A stretch of DNA of 64,000 nucleotides from Candidatus Amesbacteria bacterium RIFOXYB1_FULL_44_23 (GCA_001773775.1 MEXR01000032.1:7266-71265), one strand, 5' to 3'; shown: positions 19,994-38,229, counted from the stretch's first letter. Numbers and translations: made by a program. The notes: a model not told the origin generated them from the sequence alone.

Positions 19994-20007
19994 GGAGGTG
20001 ATGATGC

Positions 20008-20343
20008 ATGGCAACTATTGATGATTTTAACGCACTAGATATCAGAGTGGGAAAAATTGTGGAAGTTGAGGATTTCCCCGAGGCAAGGAAACCTTCATAT
20101 AAGCTAACAATTGATTTTGGACCAGAAATCGGGATAAAGCACTCAAGCGCTCAATTGGTTAAGCACTACACAAAAGAAGAGCTAAAAAACAAGCTGGTGT
20201 TGGGTGTGGTCAATTTTCCCCCGCGCCAAATCGGTCCTTTTATATCCGAATCACTTACTCTGGGAGTTCCGGATGAAAACCATGATTGCATTCTAATTGC
20301 ACCCGATAAAGCCACGGCAGTGGTAGGAGGAAAACTATATTAG
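20008..20343 (+). CDS. tRNA-binding domain protein (CsaA/Trbp111/EMAP-like OB fold)
   Basis: LDIRVGKIVEVEDFPEARKPSYKLTIDFGPE is the classic tRNA-binding OB-fold signature. Confidence 0.7.
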   Translation: MATIDDFNALDIRVGKIVEVEDFPEARKPSYKLTIDFGPEIGIKHSSAQLVKHYTKEELKNKLVLGVVNFPPRQIGPFISESLTLGVPDENHDCILIAPDKATAVVGGKLY

Positions 20344-20555
20344 GATTGATTCCAGAATTCGAATTTCGATCTAGCGTCGATACTATTAGACGAGTTCTGA
20401 TCAGGGTTTGGGTGGGTATGGGCGGAAATCCGTTCGAACCTGTTTAGCCATTAAGTTATTATTGGGTTATGTTCAAAATCGTGGCCTGCCCGGTTGATAA
20501 AAGAGAAGTGGGGGAGTTGGCTCGTGAGATCGGGGGCTTTTATATTTGAAAATGT

Positions 20556-20786
20556 ATGACTAAACGACAGGTTTGGCAAACGATAGCCTTGGATTTGAAG
20601 AGAGCGGCTAATTATTTGCATGCTAAGAGATACCGGCAGGCAGAATTTTATTTAGATGAGGCCAAACAACTGTACAAGACCGCTTCTTTTGACGACAAGA
20701 TGCGCTCTGTTGAGAAGTTTATAAGCTTTAGCGGTGATCCGGAAGGGATTTTGTTGGGGAGCAGTATTATTTCAGGGAGACTGTAA
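20556..20786 (+). CDS. Small hypothetical protein
   Basis: 76-aa ORF in an AT-rich stretch. Confidence 0.25.
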   Translation: MTKRQVWQTIALDLKRAANYLHAKRYRQAEFYLDEAKQLYKTASFDDKMRSVEKFISFSGDPEGILLGSSIISGRL

Positions 20787-20875
20787 AACCCGGCTGGCCT
20801 GATGGAAAGTATTCTAGCCTGTTCCTCTCAAATTTAGTATTTACTATCTTTGTAAAATATGTTAGAAGTTCTTAA

Positions 20876-21109
20876 ATGTCAGATGAACGTTTAGGTCCGG
20901 CAGAAACAAGGGTAGATATTAGAAGATATATCGAAGAACACCCCGAAGGTGTAAATATTTCTCCAACTGTTCTTGCGGCCATTGCTAGGCAGAGAAAATG
21001 GTCGGATCTTGTAGATCCTGTAAGAAGAATAACTTCAGGTCTAAAAACTTTAGGAGTTGTACGTATAGAGGGTTTAATTGCTAAACCCGTTCCTCGAAGG
21101 AAGCATTAA
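20876..21109 (+). CDS. Small hypothetical protein
   Basis: 77-aa ORF in an AT-rich stretch. Confidence 0.25.
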   Translation: MSDERLGPAETRVDIRRYIEEHPEGVNISPTVLAAIARQRKWSDLVDPVRRITSGLKTLGVVRIEGLIAKPVPRRKH

Positions 21110-21264
21110 AATTTGTTCAGAGGGCTTTGATGGAAGACGTCTGCGGTAAACCACTACCCCCTTTGATACAGAACGAAGCTGTTACGCACAAAATTTAACA
21201 TAACAGACTAGATAGAATGGCCTCACGCGGTTATAATCTCACTTAGTAAAACAACTAAATAGCC

Positions 21265-22074
21265 ATGAATATGCCTGATTTCGATGAGTCTCGAGTTATA
21301 TTTGAAAAGAGATGGCAGGAGTATGTTAATAATTTTCTTGCCTCACCATCTAATTCCAAGGTATTTAAAGCGTACGAGTCCGGGGGAATCTTATCTCCTG
21401 AAAATAGGAATGTGGTAGAGCATCAAATCATGGCAAGATTCGTAGTTGAGGTGTTGTGTGATTTGTGTGGTGTAGACGGAAATGAAAAGGAAGACGGCTT
21501 AACAGCAGCAAGTCTGCACGATTTCAATGTGCTCGAAGAAAAATTCGGCAGAAGAAACGGGAAATATAAACATTACCGGGATATAGAATCGCTGAAAGAA
21601 AAAGATCGTAATACACTCAGAGAGTTGGGGTTTTCAGAGGAAGCAATTAGTCTGACGGATGCTAACATAACGCACGAAGAGGGGGGTCCAAAATCACTAA
21701 CCGCGATGTTTTTGTTCTTGGCTGACGCCTGCATCTCCGGAACAAAAATCGTAGATATCAGAAAAAGATTTGCGGATACAAGGATGGGGTGGCGCAGCGA
21801 CAAGAAGCGAATAGATGATAAAACAGCGCAGGAGAATGCATATTATTATGATCATTTTTGGAAAGGGGCTCCGGGGCACGGAGACAGGCCGCATGATGAA
21901 GTACAACTGGAAACTGCCGCAAGAATATGTAGTGATTTGGTAGGAATATTAAGAGAGAAGCAGGCAGATACTAAAAATCCCAAATACGCACGCATATTTG
22001 GCCCAAATGGAGATTCAAACCTACTTCCAGAGTATATACGGGATAAAGTGAACGAAAAAGTTGCAAACGTCTAA
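21265..22074 (+). CDS. Hypothetical protein, possible HD-domain phosphohydrolase
   Basis: H...HD pattern (VVEHQIMARF ... AASLHDFNVLEE); weak. Confidence 0.35.
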   Translation: MNMPDFDESRVIFEKRWQEYVNNFLASPSNSKVFKAYESGGILSPENRNVVEHQIMARFVVEVLCDLCGVDGNEKEDGLTAASLHDFNVLEEKFGRRNGKYKHYRDIESLKEKDRNTLRELGFSEEAISLTDANITHEEGGPKSLTAMFLFLADACISGTKIVDIRKRFADTRMGWRSDKKRIDDKTAQENAYYYDHFWKGAPGHGDRPHDEVQLETAARICSDLVGILREKQADTKNPKYARIFGPNGDSNLLPEYIRDKVNEKVANV

Positions 22075-22149
22075 GGGGAGATTTGTAATATTCATTGGGA
22101 TTAGTTCTCGATATTTGCAGGGACTGGCGGACTGTCTGGGAACCTGGTT

Positions 22150-23220
22150 TTGGGTATAATCAGTCTTATGGATGAAATTAAAGTAGCTTCACTAGAAGAT
22201 TTGGGTTGGGGTGGGTATTTTAAAAATGAACACTCTATAGCCAGAGTGGTTGCCGAATATAGAGAAGCGTATAGGGTCAGAAGCATAAATGGAGAATTTT
22301 TAGCAAAAATTACCGGTAAACAACTGTTTTTGGCGACCAAACGGGAAGATTATCCGGCGGTAGGTGATTTCGTGGTGATAGATGAAATGTCCGGGAAAAA
22401 AGCAGTAATTCGTGAGGTGTTGCCCAGAAAGACCTGGCTTAAGAAGAAGTACAGCGATAAAGAAGAAAACCAGCTGATAGCAACTAACATAGACGCGGCA
22501 TTTATAGTGGGATCTCCGGATAAGGATTACAGTTTGAATCGTTTTGAGAGATATTTAGTTATTGCTAAGGACGGGGGAATTAAGCCGGTCTTAATTATTA
22601 ACAAAACCGACTTACTTTCTGAGGCGGAATTGCGCGCCAAAATATCGGAGATTAAGGAAAGATTTGGGGAGGTTGATATTCTTCTGACTAGTACAGTGAC
22701 TGAGCTGGGATTAGGAGAGCTGGAAAAGTATATTCTAAGGGGTAAGACATATTGCTTTTTGGGTTCTTCCGGAGTAGGCAAATCGACACTTATAAATAAA
22801 TTACTGGGTAAAAATGAAATTAAAACGATGGAAATTAGTGAAACATCCGGCAGGGGAAAACACACCACCTCAACCAGGGAGATGTATTTTTTAAAAAACG
22901 GGGGAATAGTCATTGATAACCCAGGAACCAGGGAGGTGGGTACGGGAGATTCAGTTAGGGGTATGGAAAATGTGTTTGATGAAATAAGATTACTGTCTCA
23001 AAACTGCAGATTTTCTGATTGCACGCATACAAACGAACCTAATTGTGCGATTATCACAGCCGTGGAGTCTGGAAGTTTGGATAAAGATAAATATGCGAAT
23101 TTTCTAAAGTTACGAAAAGAATCGGAATTTTATAAAATGAGTGAGCTGGATAGAAGAGCTAAAGATCGGAAGTTTGGAAAATTTGTTAAGAAGGCAAAAA
23201 ATGAGCTTGAGATGTATTGA
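22150..23220 (+). CDS. rsgA: Ribosome small-subunit-dependent GTPase A (RsgA/YjeQ)
   Basis: Circularly permuted GTPase motifs (NKTDL, GSSGVGKSTLIN, DTPG-like DNPGTRE) and the RsgA zinc finger CRFSDCTHTNEPNC. Confidence 0.85.
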   Translation: MGIISLMDEIKVASLEDLGWGGYFKNEHSIARVVAEYREAYRVRSINGEFLAKITGKQLFLATKREDYPAVGDFVVIDEMSGKKAVIREVLPRKTWLKKKYSDKEENQLIATNIDAAFIVGSPDKDYSLNRFERYLVIAKDGGIKPVLIINKTDLLSEAELRAKISEIKERFGEVDILLTSTVTELGLGELEKYILRGKTYCFLGSSGVGKSTLINKLLGKNEIKTMEISETSGRGKHTTSTREMYFLKNGGIVIDNPGTREVGTGDSVRGMENVFDEIRLLSQNCRFSDCTHTNEPNCAIITAVESGSLDKDKYANFLKLRKESEFYKMSELDRRAKDRKFGKFVKKAKNELEMY

Positions 23221-23300
23221 ATTTTTTACTTAAAGCTATTTTGCAGGTTTGGACGCCATAGCCCTGAGCGGAGTCGAAGGGGAAGATACTCGAATTTTGT

Positions 23301-23936
23301 ATGGGCAACTTGCCTCTTTTGGAACTAAGCAATAAAATCCGGCAAATGGCTCGTGAACGCGGGTTTGAATGTCTGTTTAGCAGTAATCCAAAGGTTTATT
23401 TTATCGAGCAAGTTATTGAACAGCTCGATGTACTCGAGGCTCTCTTTTTGTGGGAACAGGGATTGGAACATATCTCTGGCTTAGTGACTGGATGTTTCGA
23501 TATACTACACCCTGATCAAGTTGAGTTTTTACAAGCAGGAAAAAGAAAGGTTCAGACGTTAATTGTGGGGGTTGATAGGGATGAAACGGTGAGACTAAAA
23601 GGTCCAGGAAGACCAATTTTTAATCTTAGACAAAGGTGCGAAATGCTGGCGGCTCTTGATTGTGTAGACTTAGTTTTTCCAATTCCCTTTGCTTTGGGAA
23701 GGTATGAGGAGTCACCCGAAAACGCTACCTTGTTCGAAGCCTTAACTGATAGATTATTCAACTCTACTTTGCCGAGGCAAGGTATACATTGTCTAATAAC
23801 AAATGAAGCTGCAGATCCGTTTTGGCGGGAAAAGAAAGAGCGGGCTGAAAAACTGGGAGTTGGCTATATTGGTTTGAATATGGAGAGATCTACTAGCTCG
23901 AGTCAGGTGGCAACTAAAATTCAAACAGGGGGTTAG
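23301..23936 (+). CDS. Cytidylyltransferase-like nucleotidyltransferase (HxGH family; RfaE domain II / TagD-like)
   Basis: GCFDILHPDQVEFLQ is an H-x-G-H-type motif in the right position, followed by VGVDRDETV... Confidence 0.5.
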   Translation: MGNLPLLELSNKIRQMARERGFECLFSSNPKVYFIEQVIEQLDVLEALFLWEQGLEHISGLVTGCFDILHPDQVEFLQAGKRKVQTLIVGVDRDETVRLKGPGRPIFNLRQRCEMLAALDCVDLVFPIPFALGRYEESPENATLFEALTDRLFNSTLPRQGIHCLITNEAADPFWREKKERAEKLGVGYIGLNMERSTSSSQVATKIQTGG

Positions 23937-23951
23937 GCATTCTTTATGGTT

Positions 23952-23978
23952 GCAGCCCTGGATGGAAGACATCCGAAC
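23952..23978 (+). repeat. 27-nt direct repeat copy 1 (GCAGCCCTGGATGGAAGACATCCGAAC)
   Basis: 25/27 identical to 24782..24808; contains a small hairpin ggatg-gaaga-catcc. Confidence 0.6.
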
Positions 23979-24008
23979 CTATTACTCTCAAAACCGATAA
24001 TAGAGTAT

Positions 24009-24698
24009 CTATTTTAATATTTCTCTTACAGTAGCCTGGACAAGGATTTCCATTGTATCGATAATTTCAGAGTTCTGTATATGGGGGGTGATTAATTGTA
24101 AATCTGTGCACGCAAGCAGAATTGTTTTTGGACCCTGGTCTAGTAGTCCTTTGGTTATTTTTAACAATTTTTCCCTGTCTTCACCATCCTGTCTACTGTG
24201 AACCAGGTGGTTGATGATTTCGCCCATTTGGTTCTGATCCTCCTCAACTGGACTTTTTACTTTTATACCATTTGAGGTAAGAACCTCTTCATATAACCTT
24301 TTTCTGATGGTGGAGGAGGTGGCTAAAAGACCAACTTCGGTGACTTTGTTACTATTGAGGCGACTTAATGTTTCATCCACTATGCTCAAAACAGGGACTT
24401 TCACTGATTCTCGGATTTGGTTAATAAAAATATGAACTGAGTTACATGGGATGACGATAAAATCTGCTCCGCCCTTCTCCAGTCTTTTAGCGGCATCTAA
24501 CAGATAAGGCAGATATTTTTCTTCTCCCTGAGAATTCTTGATGAATTCCTCTTCTATCTGATAGGGGAGGGGGACGTTCCAAATCAGCATTGGCGGACGG
24601 TTTATCCGATCCTTTTCAAAACAGGAGAAAATTACCTCCAGATAAAATTTGGAAGTTGTTTCCGGACCCAGTCCGCCAATTATGCCTGCAGTTTTCAT
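24009..24698 (-). CDS. Asp/Glu/hydantoin racemase family protein (aspartate racemase-like)
   Basis: MKTAGIIGGLGPETT ... two catalytic Cys regions (IVIPCNSVH, LLACTDL). Confidence 0.75.
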   Translation of the reverse strand: MKTAGIIGGLGPETTSKFYLEVIFSCFEKDRINRPPMLIWNVPLPYQIEEEFIKNSQGEEKYLPYLLDAAKRLEKGGADFIVIPCNSVHIFINQIRESVKVPVLSIVDETLSRLNSNKVTEVGLLATSSTIRKRLYEEVLTSNGIKVKSPVEEDQNQMGEIINHLVHSRQDGEDREKLLKITKGLLDQGPKTILLACTDLQLITPHIQNSEIIDTMEILVQATVREILK

Positions 24699-24781
24699 TC
24701 TCGGACTTAATTATATAGCAGGTTCGATTCCAATTAGCCGTTGATATAGTTTGATATGTTTTTTAGCTTCAAATTGAGTTA

Positions 24782-24808
24782 GCTGCCCTGGATGGAAGAC
24801 ATTCGAAC
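24782..24808 (+). repeat. 27-nt direct repeat copy 2 (GCTGCCCTGGATGGAAGACATTCGAAC)
   Basis: Flanks the racemase gene together with copy 1; sits at the left edge of the AT-rich island. Confidence 0.6.
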
Positions 24809-24864
24809 TTTTTACGTTCAGTTATCTTGTTAGTTGGAATAAACAGACTTATACTTTTTCCGTA

Positions 24865-25230
24865 ATGATAATAAATCGTAATAATTCGCGTTTTTGGGAG
24901 GCTTTGGAAGATATATTGAATAATTCTTCAGTAGTAATAGACCGGCCAGGGGGCAGTGCTCATCCAAGATTTCCGAAGTTTATTTATCCTCTGGATTATG
25001 GTTTCCTCGAAGGGACTTCTTCTATGGATGGTGGGGGAATTGACGTGTGGAAGGGGACCGGTACTAACGGTTTTGATGCGATACTTTGTGTTGTTGACAC
25101 AATCAAAAAAGATTCAGAAATAAAAATATTACTTAACTGCACCCCAGAAGAAAAAAGAAAGGTGCTGGAGTGTCAGAATACAAAAAAGATGAAGGCTATG
25201 ATGATAAATCGCGACGGGACACTTTCGTGA
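24865..25230 (+). CDS. Minimal inorganic-pyrophosphatase-like protein (family I core motif only)
   Basis: DRPGGSAHPRFPKFIYPLDYGFLEGTSSMDGGGIDVW parallels the family I PPase core DR......YP.NYGYI..T...DGDP.DV. At 121 aa it lacks the usual N-terminal strands. Confidence 0.35.
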   Translation: MIINRNNSRFWEALEDILNNSSVVIDRPGGSAHPRFPKFIYPLDYGFLEGTSSMDGGGIDVWKGTGTNGFDAILCVVDTIKKDSEIKILLNCTPEEKRKVLECQNTKKMKAMMINRDGTLS

Positions 25231-25404
25231 AAAGCTAGACGTCGTCTGGTGAAGCTAAACGAAAGATTGTTACAAAGCTCTGTTGTGGCAGGACTAGTGG
25301 ACTATGTTGGAACCTGGTTTAGGGAAAATAGGTTTGGTTTTGCTGTGTAAATGGTGGGGGGCGGGTAAACCCGTTAGCTTTATTGTCGTAAAATTACTGA
25401 GGTA

Positions 25405-25986
25405 TTGGAAAGACAGCCTTTTTGGGTTAATATCGCCCCAGGAACGAGTATGAGTGACGATATTAAATGGGTGGTAGATAATGCAGTGAAGTTATCTATT
25501 TTGGCGATAGCCTTATCAGTGGCATATTACTTTGTATTTTTTTTGCCAAATAAACAGAACCAGGAATTGGAATTAAAAAGGCAACAGTATCAGGACCAGA
25601 TAGTTGCCCAGCAAAAGGAAGACGAACGGGAACAACAAAAGATTTTAGATGTACAGAAACAGGCTGCAGAGAATAGGTCATTATTGGATAAGTGTTTGGA
25701 AAACGCTGAAGATTCGTATCACCTGAATTGGAGAAATAGTTGTAGGACAAGAGGATTAATGCCAAGTGGGTGTGAGGAGGAGTCAATTAACCTGGAGTTT
25801 TCTGATTATCAGAAACAACATAATTTGCCAACTTCTACCATTGAGGGATGGGATGATTATTGGAAAGTTTACAGTGCAAAAAAGGATAAATGTACCTGCA
25901 GCTTGCCTACATATAATGCAGACGACATAACTGAGACTGAAAAAAACTCAAAGGACGAATGCTTTAAAAGATATCCACAGAATTAG
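25405..25986 (+). CDS. Membrane-anchored hypothetical protein (coiled-coil, C-terminal Cys-rich)
   Basis: TM segment (LSILAIALSVAYYFVFFL), a Q/E-rich coiled coil, and C-terminal Cys residues. AT-rich context; alternative start about 25450. Confidence 0.4.
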   Translation: MERQPFWVNIAPGTSMSDDIKWVVDNAVKLSILAIALSVAYYFVFFLPNKQNQELELKRQQYQDQIVAQQKEDEREQQKILDVQKQAAENRSLLDKCLENAEDSYHLNWRNSCRTRGLMPSGCEEESINLEFSDYQKQHNLPTSTIEGWDDYWKVYSAKKDKCTCSLPTYNADDITETEKNSKDECFKRYPQN

Positions 25987-26085
25987 GGGTATATTACGGT
26001 TGGTGTTGTCGCTGGAACCTGGTTTAGCCTGAATTGGTGGAGAGAAAGGGGGATTAGCCTTTGCTGGGTGGTTTAGGAGGAGTGG

Positions 26086-26436
26086 ATGTTTGTACTGCGC
26101 AGGACTAAGATTACCCAGGACATGGACGAGGAAAATAATGCTCTTTCTTATTTATTTTGGGGTGGGGTAATAGTCTTCATTATTTGGGCATTCATTTTTA
26201 ACAATAAGCCCGATACTGAATACATTAGGGAAGAATTCGACAATGGTAAGGCTATCGAAATGGAGGTTGACGACTCGATCACTAGAGACAATTGGGAGTG
26301 TACAGGTGATTGCTCTGGTCATGATGCTGGATATGAATGGGCAGAAGAGAAGGGGATAACTGATCCAAGTGACTGTGGTGGCAAATCAGAGTCTTTTATA
26401 GAGGGGTGTGAGGCTTATGCGAACGAAAATTATTAA
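26086..26436 (+). CDS. Small membrane protein with Cys-rich C-terminus, hypothetical
   Basis: TM segment (LFWGGVIVFIIWAFIF) and CTGDCSGHDAG...CGGKSESFIEGC. Confidence 0.35.
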   Translation: MFVLRRTKITQDMDEENNALSYLFWGGVIVFIIWAFIFNNKPDTEYIREEFDNGKAIEMEVDDSITRDNWECTGDCSGHDAGYEWAEEKGITDPSDCGGKSESFIEGCEAYANENY

Positions 26437-26537
26437 GGTAGGTGGGCATTGATGGGGTGGGGGACTACGTGGGAACCTTTTTTGTTTGTATTGATAGAAG
26501 GTATGGGGAAGTAAACCTTGTCAGGAATTTTTGTGCC

Positions 26538-27032
26538 CTAGGGTCCTTTTTTTAGGTTAGATCGGAAATTTATCCAACTTATAAAAATTTTTACTCTGTC
26601 AATGAGGCTCAGATTTGAAAGTAAGGTGTCTGCTCTGTCTCCAATGTGTTCAATGTAGTCCTTAAAATAATTTATTTCAGATTGCTTTGGTTCAAAGATT
26701 GATTCCCCGCCGGTGAAGCTGGGAATTTTTTTCCAATCCTGTACAAATGCTCTAATCATGGTTGAGAGTGATGGGTTGTACATTTTGACATTTCTAGCGA
26801 TGTGTATCAGGCGTTGTGATATGTTTTCAGAGAATTTGAGCGATGGTAAACATTGTTCTTCGAATTCGGCCAACCGATCTTGAATTTTATTTCTAAGCTT
26901 GCGTTTTTCGGTCTCATCTTCACCCAAGGATTTAAGCTTATTAGACAAGTTGTAGTTGTAAAATATTCCGATCAAACTGATTACTGCGGGTACTGAGGCT
27001 AAGACCAAAGCAAATTTTTCTGAAAGTGTCAT
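26538..27032 (-). CDS. Membrane-anchored hypothetical protein (second gene of the LexA-divergent cassette)
   Basis: 164-aa ORF with an N-terminal TM helix (FALVLASVPAVISLIGIFY). It lies 9 nt downstream of the 308-aa ORF on the same strand. Confidence 0.5.
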   Translation of the reverse strand: MTLSEKFALVLASVPAVISLIGIFYNYNLSNKLKSLGEDETEKRKLRNKIQDRLAEFEEQCLPSLKFSENISQRLIHIARNVKMYNPSLSTMIRAFVQDWKKIPSFTGGESIFEPKQSEINYFKDYIEHIGDRADTLLSNLSLIDRVKIFISWINFRSNLKKGP

Positions 27033-27041
27033 ATATTACGT

Positions 27042-27968
27042 TTATGCAAAAAGTTTTGTTATTTCCGAATCCCATGATTCAGTATGGATAACTCTTTTGA
27101 TCGATAAATTGCCTTGTATTATCTGTGCTTTGGTGAGTTTGGAAAGGGTTTCCCAGTTGTTCCCAAATACGTAAGTGGCGTTGCCATACTTGATGCACTC
27201 GAGTAGGTAAAAGCCTCTTTGCCCAAAGCCAAAAACTACATACCCCTGAAAACCGCCAAAACCAATGGCGTGTAGGGTGGGTTTGTAACTTCGAATTTTG
27301 TCTACCCTATGTGTAGCCCATGGCTGGTTACCTTTGGGTAGCTGATTTATGACCGTTTTTAATCTATCGGACACCCTTTCCCAGGGGTATTCACCTGGTG
27401 GGAGTATTTCCCAGTTGAGTCTTACTTCTTTAGGTGAAAAGTAACCTTCGAGATTATTGGAGACAATGTCGAATTCACCAAAAATTTCAAGCATCAAGTT
27501 TGCGAGGTGGAGAACTTCCTTTTCGTTTTCTGGTTTGCTTTGAACTACCCGGCTGGAAAACATGAGTTCGCCTGTTGGAGTTTGAAGTATTTCGAGTTCT
27601 TCTGAGGGTGGTAGCACTTTTTCTCTGGGATATCTTTGGTAAGGAACATCAACAAATTTGCTCATTGGAACTGTGTTGTAACGGCCGTCCCATTGTTTCC
27701 AATGCCACTTGACTGTGCGGTAAGCAGTTTCCATTGGTAGATCAGTTCTTTTTATTTCCTTGCCCAGGGCATTGAATCTGGTAGTTGGGCCAAATGTGGG
27801 TGGGGGGAGTATTTTGTGACCTACTGAAATGGGTAAGTTGAAACCAATTCTAATGGCTATCTGGTCAGTGGTGGAGTTGGTGGTGGCAATGAGTCGAAAT
27901 TGTTCACCTGGTTTTAAGAATCCAAAATAAGACTTGTAATCGTGGATTGACGTCTTTTTAATCTTCAT
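27042..27968 (-). CDS. Hypothetical 308-aa protein (first gene of the LexA-divergent cassette); no recognisable family
   Basis: Long clean ORF, AT-rich, with Gly/aromatic-rich C-terminal motifs (GFGGFQGYVVFGFGQRGFYLLE). Transcribed divergently from the LexA-like repressor across an 83-nt region containing palindromes. Confidence 0.55.
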   Translation of the reverse strand: MKIKKTSIHDYKSYFGFLKPGEQFRLIATTNSTTDQIAIRIGFNLPISVGHKILPPPTFGPTTRFNALGKEIKRTDLPMETAYRTVKWHWKQWDGRYNTVPMSKFVDVPYQRYPREKVLPPSEELEILQTPTGELMFSSRVVQSKPENEKEVLHLANLMLEIFGEFDIVSNNLEGYFSPKEVRLNWEILPPGEYPWERVSDRLKTVINQLPKGNQPWATHRVDKIRSYKPTLHAIGFGGFQGYVVFGFGQRGFYLLECIKYGNATYVFGNNWETLSKLTKAQIIQGNLSIKRVIHTESWDSEITKLFA

Positions 27969-27979
27969 GAGGCTGATTG

Positions 27980-27996
27980 TACCACAATTTCTGGTA
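27980..27996. promoter_or_regulatory. Candidate LexA operator palindrome TACCA-N7-TGGTA (second palindrome CAAGA-N4-TCTTG at 28001..28014)
   Basis: Perfect inverted repeats in the divergent intergenic region between the cassette and the lexA-like gene. Confidence 0.3.
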
Positions 27997-28051
27997 AATG
28001 CAAGATTGTTCTTGTATAGTGTGTTATGATTTAATACGATTGAAAGGCATT

Positions 28052-28669
28052 ATGGTAGGATTACATCCAAGGCAAATAAAAATTCTGGAGCTGCTGAAAG
28101 GTGGTGATGGCCAGGGTTTAAGCGTGAGGGAGATTCAGAACTTACTTGGGATTTCCTCACCAAGTGTTGTTCAGCACCACATTGTTCAATTGGAGCGGAA
28201 GGGTTATCTTCGCAGAAATCCTAATAACCCTCAGGATTTTCAGGTTTTGGCTGATAGCCCTGATAGGGAAGTGACCTATTTGAACGTTTATGGGTTGGCT
28301 CAGTGTGGTCCAGGAGGGAGAATTCTTGATGGCAATCCCATTGAGAGAGTTCCCATCAGCTCAAAATTGCTTGGATTCTCCTCCTCGGAAGCATTTATGG
28401 TTAAGGCGAAAGGAGATTCGATGGTGCCACTTATTGCTGAGAACGACTATGTGGTTGCTAGGGTAACGAATGACAAACCACCTGGGGGTGAAATTGTTGT
28501 TGCTGTCAATGATGGTAATGCGACAATAAAAAAAATAAATTATTCAGGAGGTGAGGTTGTCTTGTCGTCTATTAACAGGGATTATTCGCCAATGATTGTA
28601 TCGCCAGATTTCAGGGTGGAGGGTGTAGTTAGAGGTGTATATAAATATGCCAATCCCACGGTAAAATAA
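28052..28669 (+). CDS. lexA: LexA-type transcriptional repressor (wHTH + S24 peptidase)
   Basis: N-terminal LexA DNA-binding domain (RQIKILELL...GLSVREIQNLLGISSPSVVQHHIVQLERKGYLRR). S24 catalytic Ser in GDSM and Lys in ...NATIKK. Start trimmed to MVGLHP; the upstream in-frame extension from 27998 would overlap the promoter palindromes. Confidence 0.8.
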   Translation: MVGLHPRQIKILELLKGGDGQGLSVREIQNLLGISSPSVVQHHIVQLERKGYLRRNPNNPQDFQVLADSPDREVTYLNVYGLAQCGPGGRILDGNPIERVPISSKLLGFSSSEAFMVKAKGDSMVPLIAENDYVVARVTNDKPPGGEIVVAVNDGNATIKKINYSGGEVVLSSINRDYSPMIVSPDFRVEGVVRGVYKYANPTVK

Positions 28670-28769
28670 TTTATGGCGAAAATATCATGGTCGGAGGCAT
28701 TGGCTGATTATTTGGGGGGATGAGACGTCGAGTTACCAATCCTTGGTGGGGAAATTTGGGGTATCGAAG

Positions 28770-28840
28770 CAGGGACGGGAGGAATCGAACCTCCACTAGA
28801 GCTTTTGGAGAGCCCAGGTCTACCATTAACCTACGTCCCT
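28770..28840 (-). tRNA. tRNA-Trp (anticodon CCA)
   Basis: Hand-folded cloverleaf: acceptor AGGGACG/CGTCCCT, D-arm, anticodon stem GGGCT/AGCTC with loop CUCCAAA, T-arm GGAGG-TTCGATT-CCTCC. CCA not encoded. Confidence 0.75.
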
Positions 28841-28881: not shown

Positions 28882-29055
28882 TTACTTGAGTTTGGCGTTT
28901 TCCTTGTGGGTGGTGTGCTTTCGGCACTTCTTACAGAATTTATCCAACTGGATTTTTTCGGGGACGTTAACCTTGTTACGTTCTCCGATATAGTTTTGGG
29001 TTTTGCAGACGCTGCAAACAAAACCAAAGATCTGACGGGCACCTTTTTTGGCCAT
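28882..29055 (-). CDS. rpmG: 50S ribosomal protein L33
   Basis: Hand translation gives MAKKGARQIFGFVCSVCKTQNYIGERNKVNVPEKIQLDKFCKKCRKHTTHKENAKLK (57 aa), the canonical L33 zinc ribbon. It was missed by the ORF track (<60 aa); the track ORFs 28854..29042(-) and 28805..28993(+) are wrong-frame artefacts. Confidence 0.85.
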   Translation of the reverse strand: MAKKGARQIFGFVCSVCKTQNYIGERNKVNVPEKIQLDKFCKKCRKHTTHKENAKLK

Positions 29056-31332: not shown

Positions 31333-32100
31333 TTATCTGAAAGTTAGAAGAGAAGTCTCTAAAAGATCCTTGTGTTTGTCCCAGGCGGATTCGAGTGAGG
31401 TGGCGGTGACAATATACGCCCGGCTATCTTCAATGAGAATGAGTTGGATATTTTTGATGTGAAAGACACCCTGAACAAAAGTGCCGCCAATGATTCTGGC
31501 CTGGGATCCGGCTGTTGTTGTAACCGGCCGATCTTCGGTTGAGCGATAGTTTTGCAAAAGCTTGGGCAGCATCTCTTTGGTGGCGGCTACATAGGTATCC
31601 AAATCTAGACCGGGAACCGATTCTGAGGTGACGTTGATATTGGTGGTGAACTGGTTTTCGCCTTCTTTGTCCGTTTGGTTGTTAAAGAAAAAAACCAGGG
31701 TGCCAAATTGTCCGCTTTCGTCCGTTCGCCAACCTTTGGGGGCATTGATTTTGAAACCAAATTTAGAGTTGGTGTACGCAGTCTGTTCGAGAGAACTTGA
31801 AACTGATTGCTGGGTGGGAGCGGGTTTGGGATCGATAAGGAGTTCGGTTGATGGTTTTTTGGTGTTAACAAAGAAATAAATACCGATTGAAGCCAGGCTG
31901 ACTAGTAAAATAGCGATAAAGCCGGTTAAGAGGTGGTTTTTAGGACGGGGTGGGGCAATGGTGGTAGTGGCCTGAGATAGAGCTTCGTCGATGTCGTGCT
32001 GCTGCCATCCTTGTTGGATCAGGGTTTGGATGATTGATGAGGGCGATATCCCAGACTGGATTTGTTGCCTGATGTAGTCGAGCAGTTGCTGATTTGCCAT
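31333..32100 (-). CDS. Membrane-anchored hypothetical protein (256 aa)
   Basis: Start trimmed to MANQQLL... (ATG 32100..32098), because the longer track ORF (to 32235) runs through tRNA-Tyr. One TM (LLTGFIAILLVSLASIGIYFFV) and an extracytoplasmic domain. Confidence 0.5.
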   Translation of the reverse strand: MANQQLLDYIRQQIQSGISPSSIIQTLIQQGWQQHDIDEALSQATTTIAPPRPKNHLLTGFIAILLVSLASIGIYFFVNTKKPSTELLIDPKPAPTQQSVSSSLEQTAYTNSKFGFKINAPKGWRTDESGQFGTLVFFFNNQTDKEGENQFTTNINVTSESVPGLDLDTYVAATKEMLPKLLQNYRSTEDRPVTTTAGSQARIIGGTFVQGVFHIKNIQLILIEDSRAYIVTATSLESAWDKHKDLLETSLLTFR

Positions 32101-32184
32101 GGTGCCGGGAGCAGGATTCGAACCTACGTAGCCTAAGGCGCCTGATTTACAGTCAGGTGTGATTGACCGCTCCACCATCCCGGC
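32100..32184 (-). tRNA. tRNA-Tyr (anticodon GUA), long variable arm, CCA encoded
   Basis: Hand-folded: acceptor GCCGGGA/TCCCGGC, anticodon stem CCTGA/TCAGG with loop CUGUAAA, long variable arm CGCCTTAGGCTACG, T-arm with GGTTCGAATCC, 3' ACCA. Confidence 0.8.
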
Positions 32185-32274
32185 GATAATTATGATTTTA
32201 ACAAAATTCAGACGCTTCGTGTTGCTGACGGTCAAATCTTTAAGTACTTGAACTCTTGTTACTGACGAAATATA

Positions 32275-33054
32275 TCATTCCCAATCTTCGATTAGGGGTC
32301 GATATTCTCTTTGAATTTCTAAATATGATTTTTTGAGAATGACTTCAAGTTTTATCTGGGGGAATAGATGTCTAAATAAAGCATCTCTTTCTTGTGAATA
32401 TAAATTCATGTAGTTTTTAACTTCGATATAAGTTTTAACTTTAGGCAAATAGAAGTCTGGACGGTAGGTGTGGATTCCTAGATTAAAACGTCTGGGGGCA
32501 TATTGCCATTTAATCCCGACTAAATTGAACGTTCTGGCAAGATTGGCTTCCCATGTACTATAAAAACAAATTTTGGGATCAATATCGATTCTTACTCCAG
32601 ATTTGCCTTTTGAGGCCTTAGGCGACGTGGTTTGATGGCCAATCGTGGTTATGGCACAAAGAGAGCTACAGTATTTTCGTGACTTTGTTAAGTACCTGGC
32701 GACTTTAAATATTTGTTTACAATCAGGGTTTTGGCAGGTCAGGGTGACAAGTGGCAATTTTACTTGTTTAGGAGGTCTGATCCCGGCAAGTTTGAGACAT
32801 TTCGAAATTTTATTTCTGATTATTTCTGGCATGTGTTTTCCCGTGTTGTGAAACTGAGCCGAACATCTTCTTGAACAGAATATTTGCCTAGCGTACGGCT
32901 TTGTCTCAAAAATACTTGAACATTTTGGGTTGGGACAAACCTTGGTAATAGTGGGGCTAGTTAACTTTGTATATTTTCCAGCTAGCCAATTGGCTTTAGT
33001 AATGCGGGATTGTTTGGATCGATACGTAGGGGTTTGGTAGAACTGGGGTGCCAC
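32275..33054 (-). CDS. Zinc-finger + PD-(D/E)xK nuclease-like protein (homing-endonuclease-like), inserted within the tRNA cluster
   Basis: Duplicated C4 fingers (CPNPKCSSIF..C.RRCS and CQNPDCKQIF..CSSLC). The C-terminal TYRPDFYLP...YIEVK fits the PD...(D/E)xK nuclease core. AT-rich. Confidence 0.5.
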   Translation of the reverse strand: MAPQFYQTPTYRSKQSRITKANWLAGKYTKLTSPTITKVCPNPKCSSIFETKPYARQIFCSRRCSAQFHNTGKHMPEIIRNKISKCLKLAGIRPPKQVKLPLVTLTCQNPDCKQIFKVARYLTKSRKYCSSLCAITTIGHQTTSPKASKGKSGVRIDIDPKICFYSTWEANLARTFNLVGIKWQYAPRRFNLGIHTYRPDFYLPKVKTYIEVKNYMNLYSQERDALFRHLFPQIKLEVILKKSYLEIQREYRPLIEDWE

Positions 33055-33418: not shown

Positions 33419-34057
33419 CTAAGGAAACAGAAAACCGAGAAGAAAATTGGCGATGGGGGAAACAAGGAGTGAGGCGATTGACGCCCCACCAATAATAGGC
33501 AGAATCAGGAGTAACAAAATAAGAGGCCGGTTTTGGTTTTGATAGCGAAGGGCGGATTCGTTGGACATGAGAAGGCCAATAATTTTAGAGCCATCCAGTG
33601 GGGGAACTGGGATTAAATTAAACAGGGCCAAGAAAATATTCAGGCGGACTAAAGAATAAACAACTGCACCTACTAGCATGGGCGGGCTGGTGAAATTTAA
33701 AACAACAGCCAATAAGACAGCCATGATTAAATTACTGGCCGGTCCGGCCAGGGCGATTAAGGCGGTATCCTTTTTGGGATTTTTTAAATTGAAGGGGTCA
33801 AAAGGGGCAGGTTTTCCCCAACCAAAAAAACCGGTGACTAAAATAACCAAAGTTCCCATGGGGTCTAAATGGGCCAGGGGATTTAAGGTAGTCCGGCCCA
33901 GGGAACGGGGAGTGGGGTCTCCCAGATAATCGGCCATGTAGGCGTGGGCTGCCTCATGAATACCGATGGCCATAATTAATCCACCGAAAATAAGCGCAAA
34001 AGCAGCCGGTGAGGAAACCAGGAGATCAAGCATTAGGGTTGGTAGTGATTTAGCCAA
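33419..34057 (-). CDS. Site-2 protease family zinc metalloprotease (peptidase M50-like)
   Basis: HExxH within a TM segment (IGIHEAAHAYMADYLG) plus a multi-TM topology. Confidence 0.6.
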   Translation of the reverse strand: MAKSLPTLMLDLLVSSPAAFALIFGGLIMAIGIHEAAHAYMADYLGDPTPRSLGRTTLNPLAHLDPMGTLVILVTGFFGWGKPAPFDPFNLKNPKKDTALIALAGPASNLIMAVLLAVVLNFTSPPMLVGAVVYSLVRLNIFLALFNLIPVPPLDGSKIIGLLMSNESALRYQNQNRPLILLLLILPIIGGASIASLLVSPIANFLLGFLFP

Positions 34058-37000
34058 GTAACGTAATCGGCACCGTCTACTTTACCATCATTATTGAAAT
34101 CACCGACACTGGCTCCACCGGCAACTGCTTGTTCATAGTGATTTAGCCAAATGATGTAATCGAGTCCGTCAATTTTTAAATCACTGTTGGCATCACCAGG
34201 AATCGGAGTGGGGATGGCACTGGGCGTTTGGGTGGGGGACTGAGTTGAAGTGGGAACAGAAATAGTCGGCTGGAGAGTGGGTACGGGAGTAATAAGAGAG
34301 GTGCCGGGAGCGGAGATGGTTTTGGTCAGTCCCTGGATGTAGAAAAGATCGCCGGTTTTTAGCGCGGGGACATCTACGTACGGCTCTAATTGACTGCGGG
34401 TGGCATTAAGAACGTAGCGTTTGGCGTTTAGAAGACCGGTTCTGTCCTGCCAGGGCTGAACACTAACTTCTCCGGCTGCTTCCGGGGCGTTAACCATAAA
34501 CCAGTAGGGAGCCATACGTTCATAGGCTGTCACCTGATTGGTGACTTCCGGTAGGGCATGCTGGCTCATGAAAGAGCCGACTTCGGGGACCAGGTCGAGA
34601 AAATCAACCGTGAAGGTGTAAGCGCCGCCGGTAAGGGCGCCGCTTCTGAAGTAGAGCAGATCGTAGATCAGGCCGTAGGTCGAATATTGGGACCACTGAG
34701 TGCCGATTTGCTGGGTGTGGAAAGTAATTTCTCCCACATCGGGCCGGTATGCCTGGACCGTCCACAAGTGGCCACCATTTTCAAACCCGGTTTGGGAGAG
34801 GCTTTCGGGGTTTTTACTTAAGGCCAGGCGCATCAAAAGCAGTTTAGTGAAGACCTGTTTTTGGGTATCGGTGTTGGCTGCGGCCTGATTGCCTAATTTA
34901 ATATAGCCCAGATATCCGGCCAGGTAGTTATTAAGAGTGTAGGGAGTGCTAATTCTGAAGCGGTTCCCGGTAAAGGGATTTTGGAGCTTGTTGGAAACTG
35001 CGGAAAAGAGAGTTTGGGCATTGCCGAATTCCTGAGCATATTTGGCCAGGGTATATAAACTTTTGGGTGAGTAAGACCAGCCTTGAGTATCGATAGACCA
35101 GTTTACAGAGGTGTTTTGGTTTATAACCCGATTGGCCCGGTTGAACTCATATTCAAAATCCGGAAGAGGGAGATGGTCTTCCCGGCGGGTTCCACTGCCA
35201 AAGCCGGTGTGGACGATCGAAGTGATTGGATCGTGACTGTATTCACTCTGAATGTAAGTGCGAAGGGCCAATTGCTGATCTGACGGAAGTAGCGGTAGTG
35301 CATCAAGCAGAGTAAGAATTGTTTCTGAGGGGTTGTGGTAATACTGGAACAGCCATTCTCCGGCTGAGTTGTCTAAGTTATTGAGAATGCCGTAGTAAAT
35401 GCGGTAGGGGCGTAAATGTCCGGCAGTTTCCATAGCTGAAATCTCCCGGCTTAAGCGAGAAACCAGCGGATCTGAAGCTGAAGCTGCAGTGGATGAAGCC
35501 GGGGATTGGGTCCACAAAGAGGAAACTCCGGGAATGGTCACGCTAAGTTGACCGGTGTTGGCAACGGCAGCCCATCTGCCTAAAGGAAGAGGGTAATTAA
35601 GATCCAGGTGGTTTGCCAGGGGCTGGGAGTTGAAAGTGATTTGAGTGTTATTCCAGGCAGCCAGCGCGGTAGTGGGAGGAATAAAGGCGACATCTGAAGG
35701 AGTACTGCCACCGGCAAATCCGAATTTAGTAAAAGCGGAATAACTGTAAGTTTGGGTGGCACTAGCGGTGGTAAAGGAGGAGTTTTCGGTCCAGGAGGTG
35801 GGGAAAACTCTGGCCAGCTGATCGATTTGATCGGCTTTGGATACTTCAGCTGTGTTCGGCCCTGCTACCTGCCAGCGATCTAAGATTGAGTTCAGGCGAT
35901 CGTCGGCATAATAGGTGGGGCCTTTGCCGGGTAAGGGACTGCTTAAACCATTAAAAGGAGTAAGGCTGATGTGTCCGGTTGATGAGGCAAAGTTTAAGAT
36001 GATTCCGGTTGAACGGACGCTGATTGAGGAAGGACGATTTTCCAAGGAAACGACAACCGGAAACCAGCGATGGTTGTCGGAAGTGTCCCAGACTATAAAC
36101 CAGCCGTCGGTCAGGCTGCTGCCGGCAACGTCGCCTGCGCCGATAACCCGGGTGATTCCGGATGCGGATGGATAGGCAATTCCGGCAACCGGCCCGGAGA
36201 GTTTGAGATATGAGCCGGTGTTATGTAATAGCAGGGTAGGAGTAACAGGCGAGGTGCGGATAGTCAGAGTGCCGTTGTCATAAGTAGAAGTGAGGGTAGG
36301 AGCAAATGTCGAAGCTGTGACTGTGGTTTGGGTGGGCATAAGTGAGGGGTGGGCAATAACAGAAAATGGATTAAACACATACATGGGATACGAATTCAAA
36401 GCGGCGTTTGGCCTAAGGTCTAAATACGATTCCTGTTGGTGCCATGTAGGCCAGATGTTGGTATTGGAGGTGACATTGGAAAAGATTCCGGTAATTTTTA
36501 GAGGACCTTCGGTGGCTGTTACCTGGACGCCGGTATTTTTGTTTCGAATTGAAGCAATGGCGGCGGTTTGATTCCAAAGGTATTGTTTGGCAGTTCCCTG
36601 GGAACTGAATTCAACCAGGGCGTTATTGGTGATGGAGTAGACCTTCCCGCGAAAAGGAATCATGGGCGCCTGATCACCGGATTTCCAATAGCCATATGGC
36701 CAACCCCGGCGGAACAATTCGGGAACGAGGTAACTTAAGAAGCTGTCGCCGCCCTGATCCCAATAATTGCTGGACTGGGTAGGGCTGGATGAATAACGAA
36801 AGACTCTGGCTGCCCGTTCGGCCATCAGTTTATGGTGAATAAAGTTGGGGCCGGCCGCATAGGCTGAGGGTTCGTCGATGGCCCAGTTACCTTCAGGTAA
36901 ACTGAAATATCTACTGCCGGGAACCCAACCTACCAGTCCCCCCCGGCCGATGGCACTATTGGTGATGTAGTTGTTGCGGGCGTAAAGTACGTTATCAGAT

Positions 37001-38229
37001 CCGATAAGCGGAGGATAAGCGGTGCCGGCTTTTCCGCCAACATAAGCAAATGGCATATGGTCGTCAACCTGGCCATTGCCTTCCAAATCGGCTAGATATT
37101 CATTTCCGTTGGCAGCGTAGACCATGAAATAAGTCCGGCGGTAAGCACGATTGGCAGATTCAGTGACCCGGGTGGCCGGATCGCAGGTGGTGGTGTTTTC
37201 CGAGAGAATATAAGTTTCGTTTTGGTTGTCTAAATAGGTGATGTGTTTAGCAGCGCTAAGCATGGAAAATCCGTGCATCCAGGGCTGATTTCCGGCTTCA
37301 ATGGGCACAATGGGCAGAAAGGAGGTAAAGGAGTTACGGTCGCATGTGCTGCCCTGCGAATACAAATCGGTTGATTCCAGGTGGGTTTGAGTGATGTCAA
37401 ACAAACGAACGAAGATGACATATTTGGTGCCGTTGTACGAATAAACGACCGGCCAGTAGGACTGAAACATGGGACCGGGAAATTTGTCTTTTTGCGGGGT
37501 GGATGGGTCGGCGTCTGATTTCCAAATGATGGCTCCGGTGTCGGCACTGATGGCATAAGCATGCATGTCGTTACTGGCGACATACAGAACTCCGGCATCG
37601 TAGGCAGGGGATTGGTAAATGGTTCCACCGGTTTGCTGACGCCACTTAAGCGATCCGGTATTGAGATCAAAGGCATAAACTGATCCATCTCTGTTGGCGG
37701 CATAAACGGTATTGTTTATGACAATCGGATTGCTTTGAAACCCGGCTTCAGCTTCTGGACTGCGCCATAGAAGCTGATACGAATTACCATTATCCTTGAT
37801 GGCGTGAATCCGCTTGTCCATTCCGGGAAGGTAAGCTACCCCGGCTACGACGGTAGGGGAGTTTCCTGAAGGAAGCGAAGTAGGATAATGCCATTTCAGT
37901 CCGGAGGTAGCTTGTCTTGATGGAGTGTCGAATCGGACGGCCGAAGGGTCAACGGCATACAATCCATCGGAAGCGGCCACATAAATAGTGTCACGACCCT
38001 GGGAATCTTTTGTAGCTATGGGGTGAATACGTTGGGAAACATAAGAACCGATGGGCAAAAACCAGTCGGGAGTTAATGTACCGGGAACATCTTCTGAAAC
38101 TGTACTGGTGCGGTTATAGTTGCCGGCTACGGTAAACCAGTCAGTGGAGGGAGGCAGGGTTTGGGCGCGAGCAAGCTGAGGGGAACCGAGTAAACATACT
38201 AAAAGTATTAATAGATTGACGACTGTCAT
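34033..38229 (-). CDS. Giant secreted protein (1398 aa): signal peptide, PQQ-like beta-propeller repeats, C-terminal tandem dockerin-type Ca-binding repeats
   Basis: Signal peptide MTVVNLLILLVCLLGSPQLARAQT. Repeated ...DG.VYA.D..TG...W motifs (YAVDPSA, VYAFDLNTGSLKWRQ, YAISADTGAIIWK). C-terminus GDANSDLKIDGLDYIIWLNHY ... GDFNNDGKVDGADYVTWLNHY (dockerin-like DxNxDGxxD). Confidence 0.7.
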   Translation of the reverse strand: MTVVNLLILLVCLLGSPQLARAQTLPPSTDWFTVAGNYNRTSTVSEDVPGTLTPDWFLPIGSYVSQRIHPIATKDSQGRDTIYVAASDGLYAVDPSAVRFDTPSRQATSGLKWHYPTSLPSGNSPTVVAGVAYLPGMDKRIHAIKDNGNSYQLLWRSPEAEAGFQSNPIVINNTVYAANRDGSVYAFDLNTGSLKWRQQTGGTIYQSPAYDAGVLYVASNDMHAYAISADTGAIIWKSDADPSTPQKDKFPGPMFQSYWPVVYSYNGTKYVIFVRLFDITQTHLESTDLYSQGSTCDRNSFTSFLPIVPIEAGNQPWMHGFSMLSAAKHITYLDNQNETYILSENTTTCDPATRVTESANRAYRRTYFMVYAANGNEYLADLEGNGQVDDHMPFAYVGGKAGTAYPPLIGSDNVLYARNNYITNSAIGRGGLVGWVPGSRYFSLPEGNWAIDEPSAYAAGPNFIHHKLMAERAARVFRYSSSPTQSSNYWDQGGDSFLSYLVPELFRRGWPYGYWKSGDQAPMIPFRGKVYSITNNALVEFSSQGTAKQYLWNQTAAIASIRNKNTGVQVTATEGPLKITGIFSNVTSNTNIWPTWHQQESYLDLRPNAALNSYPMYVFNPFSVIAHPSLMPTQTTVTASTFAPTLTSTYDNGTLTIRTSPVTPTLLLHNTGSYLKLSGPVAGIAYPSASGITRVIGAGDVAGSSLTDGWFIVWDTSDNHRWFPVVVSLENRPSSISVRSTGIILNFASSTGHISLTPFNGLSSPLPGKGPTYYADDRLNSILDRWQVAGPNTAEVSKADQIDQLARVFPTSWTENSSFTTASATQTYSYSAFTKFGFAGGSTPSDVAFIPPTTALAAWNNTQITFNSQPLANHLDLNYPLPLGRWAAVANTGQLSVTIPGVSSLWTQSPASSTAASASDPLVSRLSREISAMETAGHLRPYRIYYGILNNLDNSAGEWLFQYYHNPSETILTLLDALPLLPSDQQLALRTYIQSEYSHDPITSIVHTGFGSGTRREDHLPLPDFEYEFNRANRVINQNTSVNWSIDTQGWSYSPKSLYTLAKYAQEFGNAQTLFSAVSNKLQNPFTGNRFRISTPYTLNNYLAGYLGYIKLGNQAAANTDTQKQVFTKLLLMRLALSKNPESLSQTGFENGGHLWTVQAYRPDVGEITFHTQQIGTQWSQYSTYGLIYDLLYFRSGALTGGAYTFTVDFLDLVPEVGSFMSQHALPEVTNQVTAYERMAPYWFMVNAPEAAGEVSVQPWQDRTGLLNAKRYVLNATRSQLEPYVDVPALKTGDLFYIQGLTKTISAPGTSLITPVPTLQPTISVPTSTQSPTQTPSAIPTPIPGDANSDLKIDGLDYIIWLNHYEQAVAGGASVGDFNNDGKVDGADYVTWLNHYQP

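Follow-up and report, generated by a model that had tools for sequence, protein, structure and literature searches.

What kind of DNA abuts the 3′ end of the tRNA-Trp gene in Candidatus Amesbacteria bacterium RIFOXYB1_FULL_44_23, and how did it get there? The host is a groundwater bacterium of the Microgenomates within the Candidate Phyla Radiation (CPR), and the question concerns one stretch of its DNA of 64,000 nucleotides (GCA_001773775.1, MEXR01000032.1:7266-71265; hereafter the window), to which identical contigs are found in many Rifle-type samples; its pilB-like ATPase and its LexA match proteins of the RIFOXYB1_FULL_44_23 assembly at 100% identity. The original prediction had described positions 24782-28840 (hereafter the block) as what could be a decayed integrated element or a defence island. 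Our answer has other borders: the DNA between rsgA and tRNA-Trp is best read as a strain-specific mosaic whose right-hand part, 26538-28768, is the remnant of a tRNA-Trp-associated serine-recombinase element with a LexA-gated and most likely defensive operon. We assign this reading as a whole a probability of about 60%. The features that it involves are, in window coordinates:

23221-28768: strain-specific segment between rsgA and the 3′ end of tRNA-Trp, 5,548 bp with eight genes
26538-27032, minus strand: gene for a single-pass membrane protein of 164 amino acids (aa), second gene of the operon that faces LexA (hydropathy 2.29, residues 7-25)
27042-27968, minus strand: gene for the conserved partner of LexA, a 308-aa member of a large family without a name (homolog and alignment searches)
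27976-28014, minus strand: predicted promoter/operator of the 308-aa operon
28052-28669, plus strand: gene for a LexA-type repressor, 205 aa, with a winged helix-turn-helix (HTH), an S24 autopeptidase and a Cys-Gly cleavage site (Pfam, PDB, alignment)
28670-28768: junction of 99 bp between the LexA stop codon and the 3′ end of tRNA-Trp; a related element (L111, see below) has ~3.8 kb here, with a serine recombinase, small open reading frames (ORFs) and an HTH_3 gene
28769-28840, minus strand: intact tRNA-Trp (CCA), the integration landmark (ARAGORN; Rfam tRNA, 62.9 bits)

The tRNA gene lies on the minus strand and thus points its 3′ end toward the block, and the LexA stop at 28669 is only 99 bp away from it. 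Three Amesbacteria contigs, reached through orthologs of a pilB-like ATPase encoded beyond the tRNA, allow a comparison of the locus: L086 (ATPase 83% identical), L087 (81%) and L088 (75%). A metagenome scan with rsgA gave four loci of which a single one was informative, L113, which is from the same organism as L086; a scan of genome contigs with the ATPase returned relatives of at most 43% identity, useless for synteny. In L086/L113, the nearest relative, whose rsgA is 77% identical to that of the window, tRNA-Trp follows 355 bp after rsgA with no called gene in between, whereas in the window eight genes and 5,548 bp separate the two. None of the eight found a match in L086-L088 by tblastn, none within 10 kb of the locus. 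These 5.5 kb, from rsgA up to the tRNA-Trp gene, are, therefore, strain-specific accessory DNA, and the comparison with orthologous tRNA-Trp loci that had been proposed earlier bears out the absence of the block genes. The left border, in contrast, had been placed too far to the right. DNA homology between window and L086 ends at 23247, 27 nt past the rsgA stop, so that the variable segment begins at ~23.25 kb and not at 24.78 kb. To the right of tRNA-Trp the gene order is kept: L33, a Zn-ribbon protein, the ATPase, tRNA-Thr, an IVP protein, tRNA-Tyr, tRNA-Thr, an M50 peptidase, fmt, def and Wzy. The locus is rearranged in L087, and in L088 other accessory genes lie downstream of tRNA-Trp (HEPN/MNT, AbiEii, GrpB). 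In addition, L086 has a gene for a 382-aa glycosyltransferase (8179-9327) between tRNA-Trp and rpmG, which are adjacent in the window (rpmG, 28882-29055) and in L088; apparently, tRNA-Trp is variable on both sides.

The origin of the right-hand part becomes apparent from the company that its genes keep elsewhere. The four closest homologs of LexA share contigs with the four closest homologs of the 308-aa protein; three of these pairs were inspected, and the fourth pairing is inferred. Identities to the window proteins are, for the three inspected pairs and for a more distant pair from Omnitrophota:

L011: LexA 65%, 308-aa protein 57%, genes divergent
L111: LexA 62%, 308-aa protein 50%, genes divergent
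L112: LexA 60%, 308-aa protein 54%, genes divergent
Omnitrophota contig: LexA 31%, 308-aa protein 43%, genes co-directional

On the three CPR contigs L011, L111 and L112 a large serine recombinase is encoded 3-5 kb beyond LexA, with an HTH_3 gene in between. The three recombinases are mutually dissimilar, and LexA and the 308-aa gene are all that these elements have in common. The L011 pair lies beside secA, that is, at another chromosomal site, but inside a recombinase-bearing element. In L111 tRNA-Trp and the recombinase gene overlap by their ends (tRNA 3′ end, 5499; gene end, 5439), with L33 upstream, and the order outward from the tRNA is recombinase, small genes, HTH gene, LexA (reading toward the tRNA) and the 308-aa gene (reading away from it). 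The window has exactly this arrangement, save that 99 bp stand in place of ~3.8 kb. Since the two hosts are distant from each other (L33 51% identical, different tRNA-Trp sequences), neither inheritance nor accident is a likely reason for the common site and orientation. In intact relatives the repressor comes with a recombinase and variable defence-type cargo, in one case also with a Toprim/AAA_25 primase-helicase; virion genes were not seen in the inspected stretches. What the window retains is LexA, the 308-aa gene and a small membrane protein, and 26538-28768 is therefore a recombinase-less remnant of a small serine-recombinase integrative element. No other part of the segment can be tied to this element: it is only 26.5-28.77 kb that can, and the segment probably goes back to several insertions. 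The core of the original prediction, a decayed integrated element or defence island at the 3′ end of tRNA-Trp, thus holds, given a relative without the block and the same module in an intact element; the arguments from base composition, left border and attachment (att) repeat on which it had been built do not.

The repressor itself matches Peptidase_S24 (PF00717, 8.6e-20), with the Ser of GDSM and the Lys of IKK present, and LexA_DNA_bind (PF01726, 2.9e-11; residues 19-78 of the long ORF), and its best PDB match is the LexA of T. maritima (3k2z, 1.2e-11). It does not reach the equivalog cut-off of TIGR00498 (104.1 versus 110.95 bits). The predicted scissile bond is Cys-Gly (residues QCG), as in UmuD, and not Ala-Gly; the Cys-Gly site is kept in the LexA homologs of L011 and of Omnitrophota. 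Although the ORF could open at 27998, as assumed before, the domain match, the homologs and the NCBI annotation favour 28052 and thus a protein of 205 aa. The designation as a bona fide LexA is justified by domains and Ser/Lys dyad, but because its nearest relatives all accompany the 308-aa gene on recombinase-bearing elements, the protein may be the repressor of the element instead of the SOS regulator of the cell.

LexA and the 308-aa operon are separated by a control region of 83 bp. L011, L111 and L112 have a common footprint there, AAATCAAGAACAT..TTGAC(T/C)GTTCT....GTAGTACAAT, in which an inverted repeat, AGAACA-N8/9-TGTTCT, surrounds the -35 box TTGACT and is followed by TACAAT at normal spacing. 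The inverted repeat is conserved in L011 and L112 and has one mismatch in L111, and the pattern was found nowhere else in 116 loci and the window. The corresponding elements of the window, whose footprint has the same length, are:

28007-28012: AGAACA arm, retained
27998-28003: -35 box TTGCAT, retained
27993-27998: degenerate second arm, TTTACC
27976-27986: extended -10 box TGTGGTACAAT, retained

That LexA represses the operon is a reasonable assumption for the family on the basis of these footprints, and an uncertain one for the window copy. A second palindrome lies on the promoter spacer, TTTACCA-N7-TGGTACA in the window (27980-28000) and TGTTCTA-N7-TAGTACA in L011 (9966-9986). Its arm position 6 is changed on both sides, C:G in the window versus T:A in L011, and this paired change hints that the second palindrome may be the real operator.

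Taken together, the following sequence of events is the most plausible one. An integrative element with a large serine recombinase would have entered at tRNA-Trp, and its end with the recombinase and HTH genes would later have been deleted in the window. Left behind would be a switch made of an autocleavable LexA-type repressor and a divergent operon for the 308-aa protein and a small single-pass membrane protein. LexA bound to the inverted repeat over the -35 box would keep the operon off; RecA on single-stranded DNA, as it arises from DNA damage or phage replication, would then trigger self-cleavage of LexA at the Cys-Gly bond and turn the operon on. The most likely task of the 308-aa protein, together with its variable partner, would be defence against phage or abortive infection, to the benefit of element and host.

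The 308-aa protein belongs to a large family that goes by no name. We retrieved 570 homologs of ~308 aa with 40-58% identity from Omnitrophota, Balneolaceae, Desulfobacterales, Babeliaceae and CPR, and 2,037 cluster representatives at E ≤ 1e-3 (~2,000 clusters at 50% identity), nearly all of them 300-315 aa long and without fusions. Thirty-eight columns are invariant among 49 family sequences, and the window protein retains all 38. A confident AlphaFold2 model (pLDDT 86.9, pTM 0.77) had no whole-fold match, Foldseek finding nothing at E ≤ 1e-3 in PDB and BFVD, and there was no match in Pfam, NCBIfam, PADLOC (E ≤ 0.1, PADLOC-DB 2.0.0) or PHROG. A weak match to Imm11 was discarded as chance, since it occurred in only one of the 49 members. 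A literature search by protein accession found nothing. Family members are located in prophages, plasmids and defence islands; the plasmid hosts include Lactococcus cremoris SK11, Leptospira interrogans, Acinetobacter johnsonii, Deinococcus and Bacillus thuringiensis, and the plasmid-borne members are always annotated as hypothetical protein. On plasmid 5 of SK11, a mobilizable dairy plasmid of 14 kb (L119, NC_008507.1, 1-4912), the family gene follows 17 nt after a gene for a 1,560-aa DEAD/DEAH helicase, and it is possible that the two form a two-gene system in a cultured, phage-rich host. Other plasmid neighbours are DUF2971 upstream (Leptospira), an AAA+UvrD pair (Deinococcus) and BrnTA (Acinetobacter).

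The slot downstream of the 308-aa gene varies from locus to locus, often with an overlap of 4-8 nt:

L111: CAP12/Pycsar-type TIR (PADLOC PDC-S35, 3e-16)
L112: Schlafen/AlbA_2
L101: KAP NTPase, in a locus behind a P2-type CI repressor

The L101 module had no match in E. coli genomes. Neighbours in 22 viral contigs of IMG/VR include AIPR, DUF4041-T5orf172, AAA_21, resolvases, integrases, a P2-type CI repressor and a UmuD-like S24 protein. Throughout the family, neighbours are of the defence-gene and mobile-hotspot type, restriction-modification (R-M) included, in a tally that is qualitative and without statistics. From these neighbourhoods we infer that a role of the 308-aa protein in DNA-damage-gated defence or abortive infection is favoured. 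It is tempting to speculate that LexA, the 308-aa protein and a variable effector (TIR, Schlafen/AlbA_2, KAP NTPase or membrane protein) make up an undescribed LexA-gated anti-phage system, with a conserved part that has no fold match among solved or predicted viral structures, on tRNA-Trp-targeting serine-recombinase elements of CPR; this extension is tentative, and we regard it as possible but rather doubtful. A LexA 63% identical to that of the window was also seen in Gracilibacteria (L117, GCA_030632415.1, 6022-11081), divergent from an operon of the cyclic-oligonucleotide-based antiphage signalling system (CBASS) that encodes an effector with one transmembrane helix (2e-74) and a SMODS/AGS_C cyclase; immediately behind it are an N6 methylase and a BsuBI/PstI-type restriction enzyme, an R-M pair. 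This suggests that CPR LexA proteins are often located in defence loci.

Several findings speak against the reading of 26538-28768 as a LexA-gated element remnant. A clean empty site exists in one close relative only, so that insertion and deletion are not fully separable. Neither a recombinase nor an integrase was found in the block or the window; that the block has no integrase had been stated from the start. A second copy of the tRNA-Trp 3′ end is absent from the window (24 nt, ≤ 3 mismatches), so the degenerate copy to be looked for near 24.8 kb did not turn up, and there is none in L111 either. For serine recombinases very short shared cores suffice, and the missing att repeat is, therefore, weak evidence against an element. 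The second operator arm of the window, TTTACC versus TGTTCT, matches in 3 of 6 positions, which makes LexA control of this copy uncertain. LexA is about 55-63% identical to the general CPR LexA clade, nearly as much as to the element-borne LexAs. The 164-aa partner is unique to this organism, no homolog being encoded beside the other family members inspected, and an S24- or CI-type neighbour is present at only ~8 of ~32 inspected family loci.

Could LexA instead be the SOS repressor of the cell, and the divergent operon a host function induced by SOS in the ordinary way, such as a division inhibitor anchored in the membrane, with no mobile element at all? We consider this unlikely. The full LexA architecture, best PDB matches that are cellular LexAs and membership in the broad CPR clade all agree with a host repressor, as does the lack of close relatives of this LexA in viral contigs of IMG/VR, but LexA is absent from the locus in the three Amesbacteria relatives and its closest homologs travel with the 308-aa gene, in all three inspected cases together with a serine recombinase. 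The single-pass membrane protein encoded by the second gene could be such an inhibitor, but it is not conserved beside other family members and matches neither LysM nor any other domain. Moreover, GAAC-N4-GTTC, the SOS box of Gram-positive bacteria, is nowhere present in the window.

Alternatively, the 308-aa protein could serve the life cycle of the element, as replication initiator, excision directionality factor or antirepressor that is first expressed upon cleavage of the repressor, the downstream genes being independent hotspot cargo. This is improbable. Family members also occur singly, with no element machinery near them: on an 8.6-kb Acinetobacter plasmid that has its own RepM, on a 1.4-Mb chromosome contig beside a FokI-like gene, and between metabolic genes. 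In the window the 308-aa gene is intact despite the loss of the recombinase, and the unrelatedness of the recombinases with which the family is paired argues against a directionality factor specific for one of them.

Finally, it is very unlikely that the block is ancestral Amesbacteria DNA deleted in the sampled relatives and not acquired: a clean rsgA-tRNA-Trp junction in only one relative (L086/L113), the other two being rearranged, and a GC (guanine plus cytosine) content of the block equal to that of the adjacent core gene rsgA would allow it, but all eight genes are missing around the locus in three relatives, the LexA/308-aa pair resides at other chromosomal sites in recombinase-bearing elements, as beside secA in L011, and the 308-aa family spreads across phyla, plasmids and prophages at 40-46% identity.

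Base composition is of little help in delimiting the acquired DNA. The original prediction had seen an island of lower GC from 24.8 kb to tRNA-Trp. GC is indeed 0.411 in the block versus 0.456 in the whole window, but the left flank (20000-24781) has 0.410 and core rsgA 0.392, and 7% of all 4-kb windows reach the value of the block or fall below it; a step is seen on the tRNA side only. Gene by gene, the tract of low GC and low GC at third codon positions (GC3) extends from 20008 to 28669. Because this tract (20.0-28.7 kb) spans core rsgA, composition says nothing about an edge at 24.8 kb, and GC, GC3 and tetranucleotide profiles were rejected as boundary markers; sliding-window GC, as recommended earlier, fails to outline an island. 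An Rfam scan of the block gave tRNAs only, and a scan for promoters and terminators gave consensus sites at chance level.

The remaining features of the segment, to the left of the element remnant, are:

23301-23936, plus strand: cytidylyltransferase-like gene, 211 aa, accessory (Pfam CTP_transf_like, 1.4e-09), absent at the orthologous locus in L086-L088
23952-23990, plus strand: left copy of a 39-nt direct repeat, 33/39 identical to 24782-24820
24009-24698, minus strand: Asp/Glu racemase gene, 229 aa, between the repeat copies (Pfam Asp_Glu_race, 1.9e-38)
24782-24820, plus strand: right copy of the repeat, including 24782-24808; 25/27 and 33/39 identical to 23952-23990
24865-25230, plus strand: 121-aa ORF with a pyrophosphatase motif below threshold (Pfam Pyrophosphatase, 17.7 bits versus a cut-off of 23.5; PDB pyrophosphatases, E 0.38 over 25 residues)
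25405-25986, plus strand: single-pass membrane protein of 193 aa, possibly 178 aa (hydropathy 2.14, residues 30-48), no family
26086-26436, plus strand: single-pass membrane protein of 116 aa (hydropathy 2.23, residues 20-38), no family

The 27-nt direct repeat taken before as the left boundary is real (25/27, extending to 33/39; chance expectation for such pairs, 4e-4). Its partner, however, lies 830 bp to the left and not at the tRNA, and the pair brackets the racemase gene alone. Given this partner and the lack of a second tRNA-Trp 3′ end, the repeat was rejected as att site of the island; it may be the trace of a small insertion or duplication of its own. Both 39-nt copies, read on the minus strand, start a short ORF, MSSIQG. 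The similarity of the 121-aa ORF to pyrophosphatases is confined to a motif of 25-30 residues, in keeping with its earlier description as a minimal, pyrophosphatase-like ORF. The 193-aa ORF is called as 178 aa on sister contigs. Two membrane-anchored hypothetical proteins had been noted before; the 193-, 116- and 164-aa ORFs have one strong hydrophobic helix each. The 164-aa gene follows the 308-aa gene after a gap of 9 nt, and searched against PADLOC-DB 2.0.0 its product gave only ZacA (0.0069) and PtuB (0.011), both below significance. In Pfam, NCBIfam, PADLOC and PHROG no ORF of the block except LexA has a significant match, which agrees with the earlier impression that the block is mostly unrecognisable.

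The tRNA cluster to the right contains further window-specific insertions (31333-33054 and 34033-38229). A 300-aa ORF overlaps tRNA-Tyr, and a low-GC 259-aa ORF lies between tRNA-Tyr and tRNA-Thr(TGT), which are merely 27 nt apart in L086-L088; a gene for a PQQ-repeat protein of 1,398 aa separates the M50 peptidase gene from fmt. All three lack a match in L086-L088. An intergenic motif of ~45 nt, TTTGCAGG..GGACT..GGAACCTGGTTTAGGG, is present at 22100-22154, 25280-25324, 26000-26038 and 26454-26487, never on the minus strand and nowhere else in the window. It also occurs in L086 (7626-7666), there exactly at the synteny break (window 23247) and with a 96.6% match to window 25297-25325. The motif may serve in recombination or as a junction between cassettes; a shared regulatory role is the other possibility.

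Because CPR/Patescibacteria are uncultured episymbionts with tiny genomes, little of their mobile elements and defence systems has been charted. The present locus joins a tRNA-Trp-targeting serine-recombinase element, a LexA-type switch and an unnamed family of ~2,000 clusters, and since that family is also found on plasmids of cultured bacteria, its function can be tested at the bench.

Genomic islands and small integrative elements that target tRNA genes and have defence hotspots are well represented by P4-like satellites and elements of the phage-inducible chromosomal island (PICI) type (e.g. Rousset et al. 2022). Like these, the window segment sits at the 3′ end of a tRNA gene and is absent in the nearest relative, and the intact relatives of its element combine recombinase, repressor and defence-type cargo. 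It differs in that the recombinase is a large serine recombinase and not a tyrosine integrase, that it is lost in the window, that no att repeat was found, and in the CPR host. As an island it is of an ordinary kind; the interesting part is the LexA/308-aa module.

Cell-division inhibitors of the SOS response are encoded divergently from lexA in several bacteria (yneA in B. subtilis, chiZ in M. tuberculosis, divS in C. glutamicum). The window operon shares with them the position and a small single-pass membrane protein, but its first and sole conserved gene encodes the soluble 308-aa protein, and the membrane protein lacks both LysM and conservation among the pairs. Some mobile elements are tied to the SOS signal by an S24 repressor, as by lambda CI and by SetR of SXT (discussed in PMC8565304). 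As in these, an element-encoded autocleavable S24 repressor faces its presumed target genes in the window, whereas its DNA-binding domain is a LexA-type winged helix and not a CI-type HTH, in a protein 55-65% identical to the CPR LexA clade.

The closest functional parallels may be the DNA-damage-responsive regulators of immune operons, CapH/CapP (bioRxiv 10.1101/2022.04.27.489752), CapW/BrxR (PMC11662680) and CapK/CapS (PMC13373217; LexA and S24 are not mentioned in that paper). In these, as presumably in the window, a repressor lies beside a (candidate) immune operon, and a DNA-damage signal would be expected to lift repression. The window repressor is of a different family and would, as a single polypeptide, rely on LexA-type S24 self-cleavage. 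If the 308-aa family is indeed defensive, LexA would provide a simple one-protein route to the activation of an immune operon after DNA damage and would join CapW, CapH/CapP and CapK/CapS as a DNA-damage-sensing regulator of such operons.

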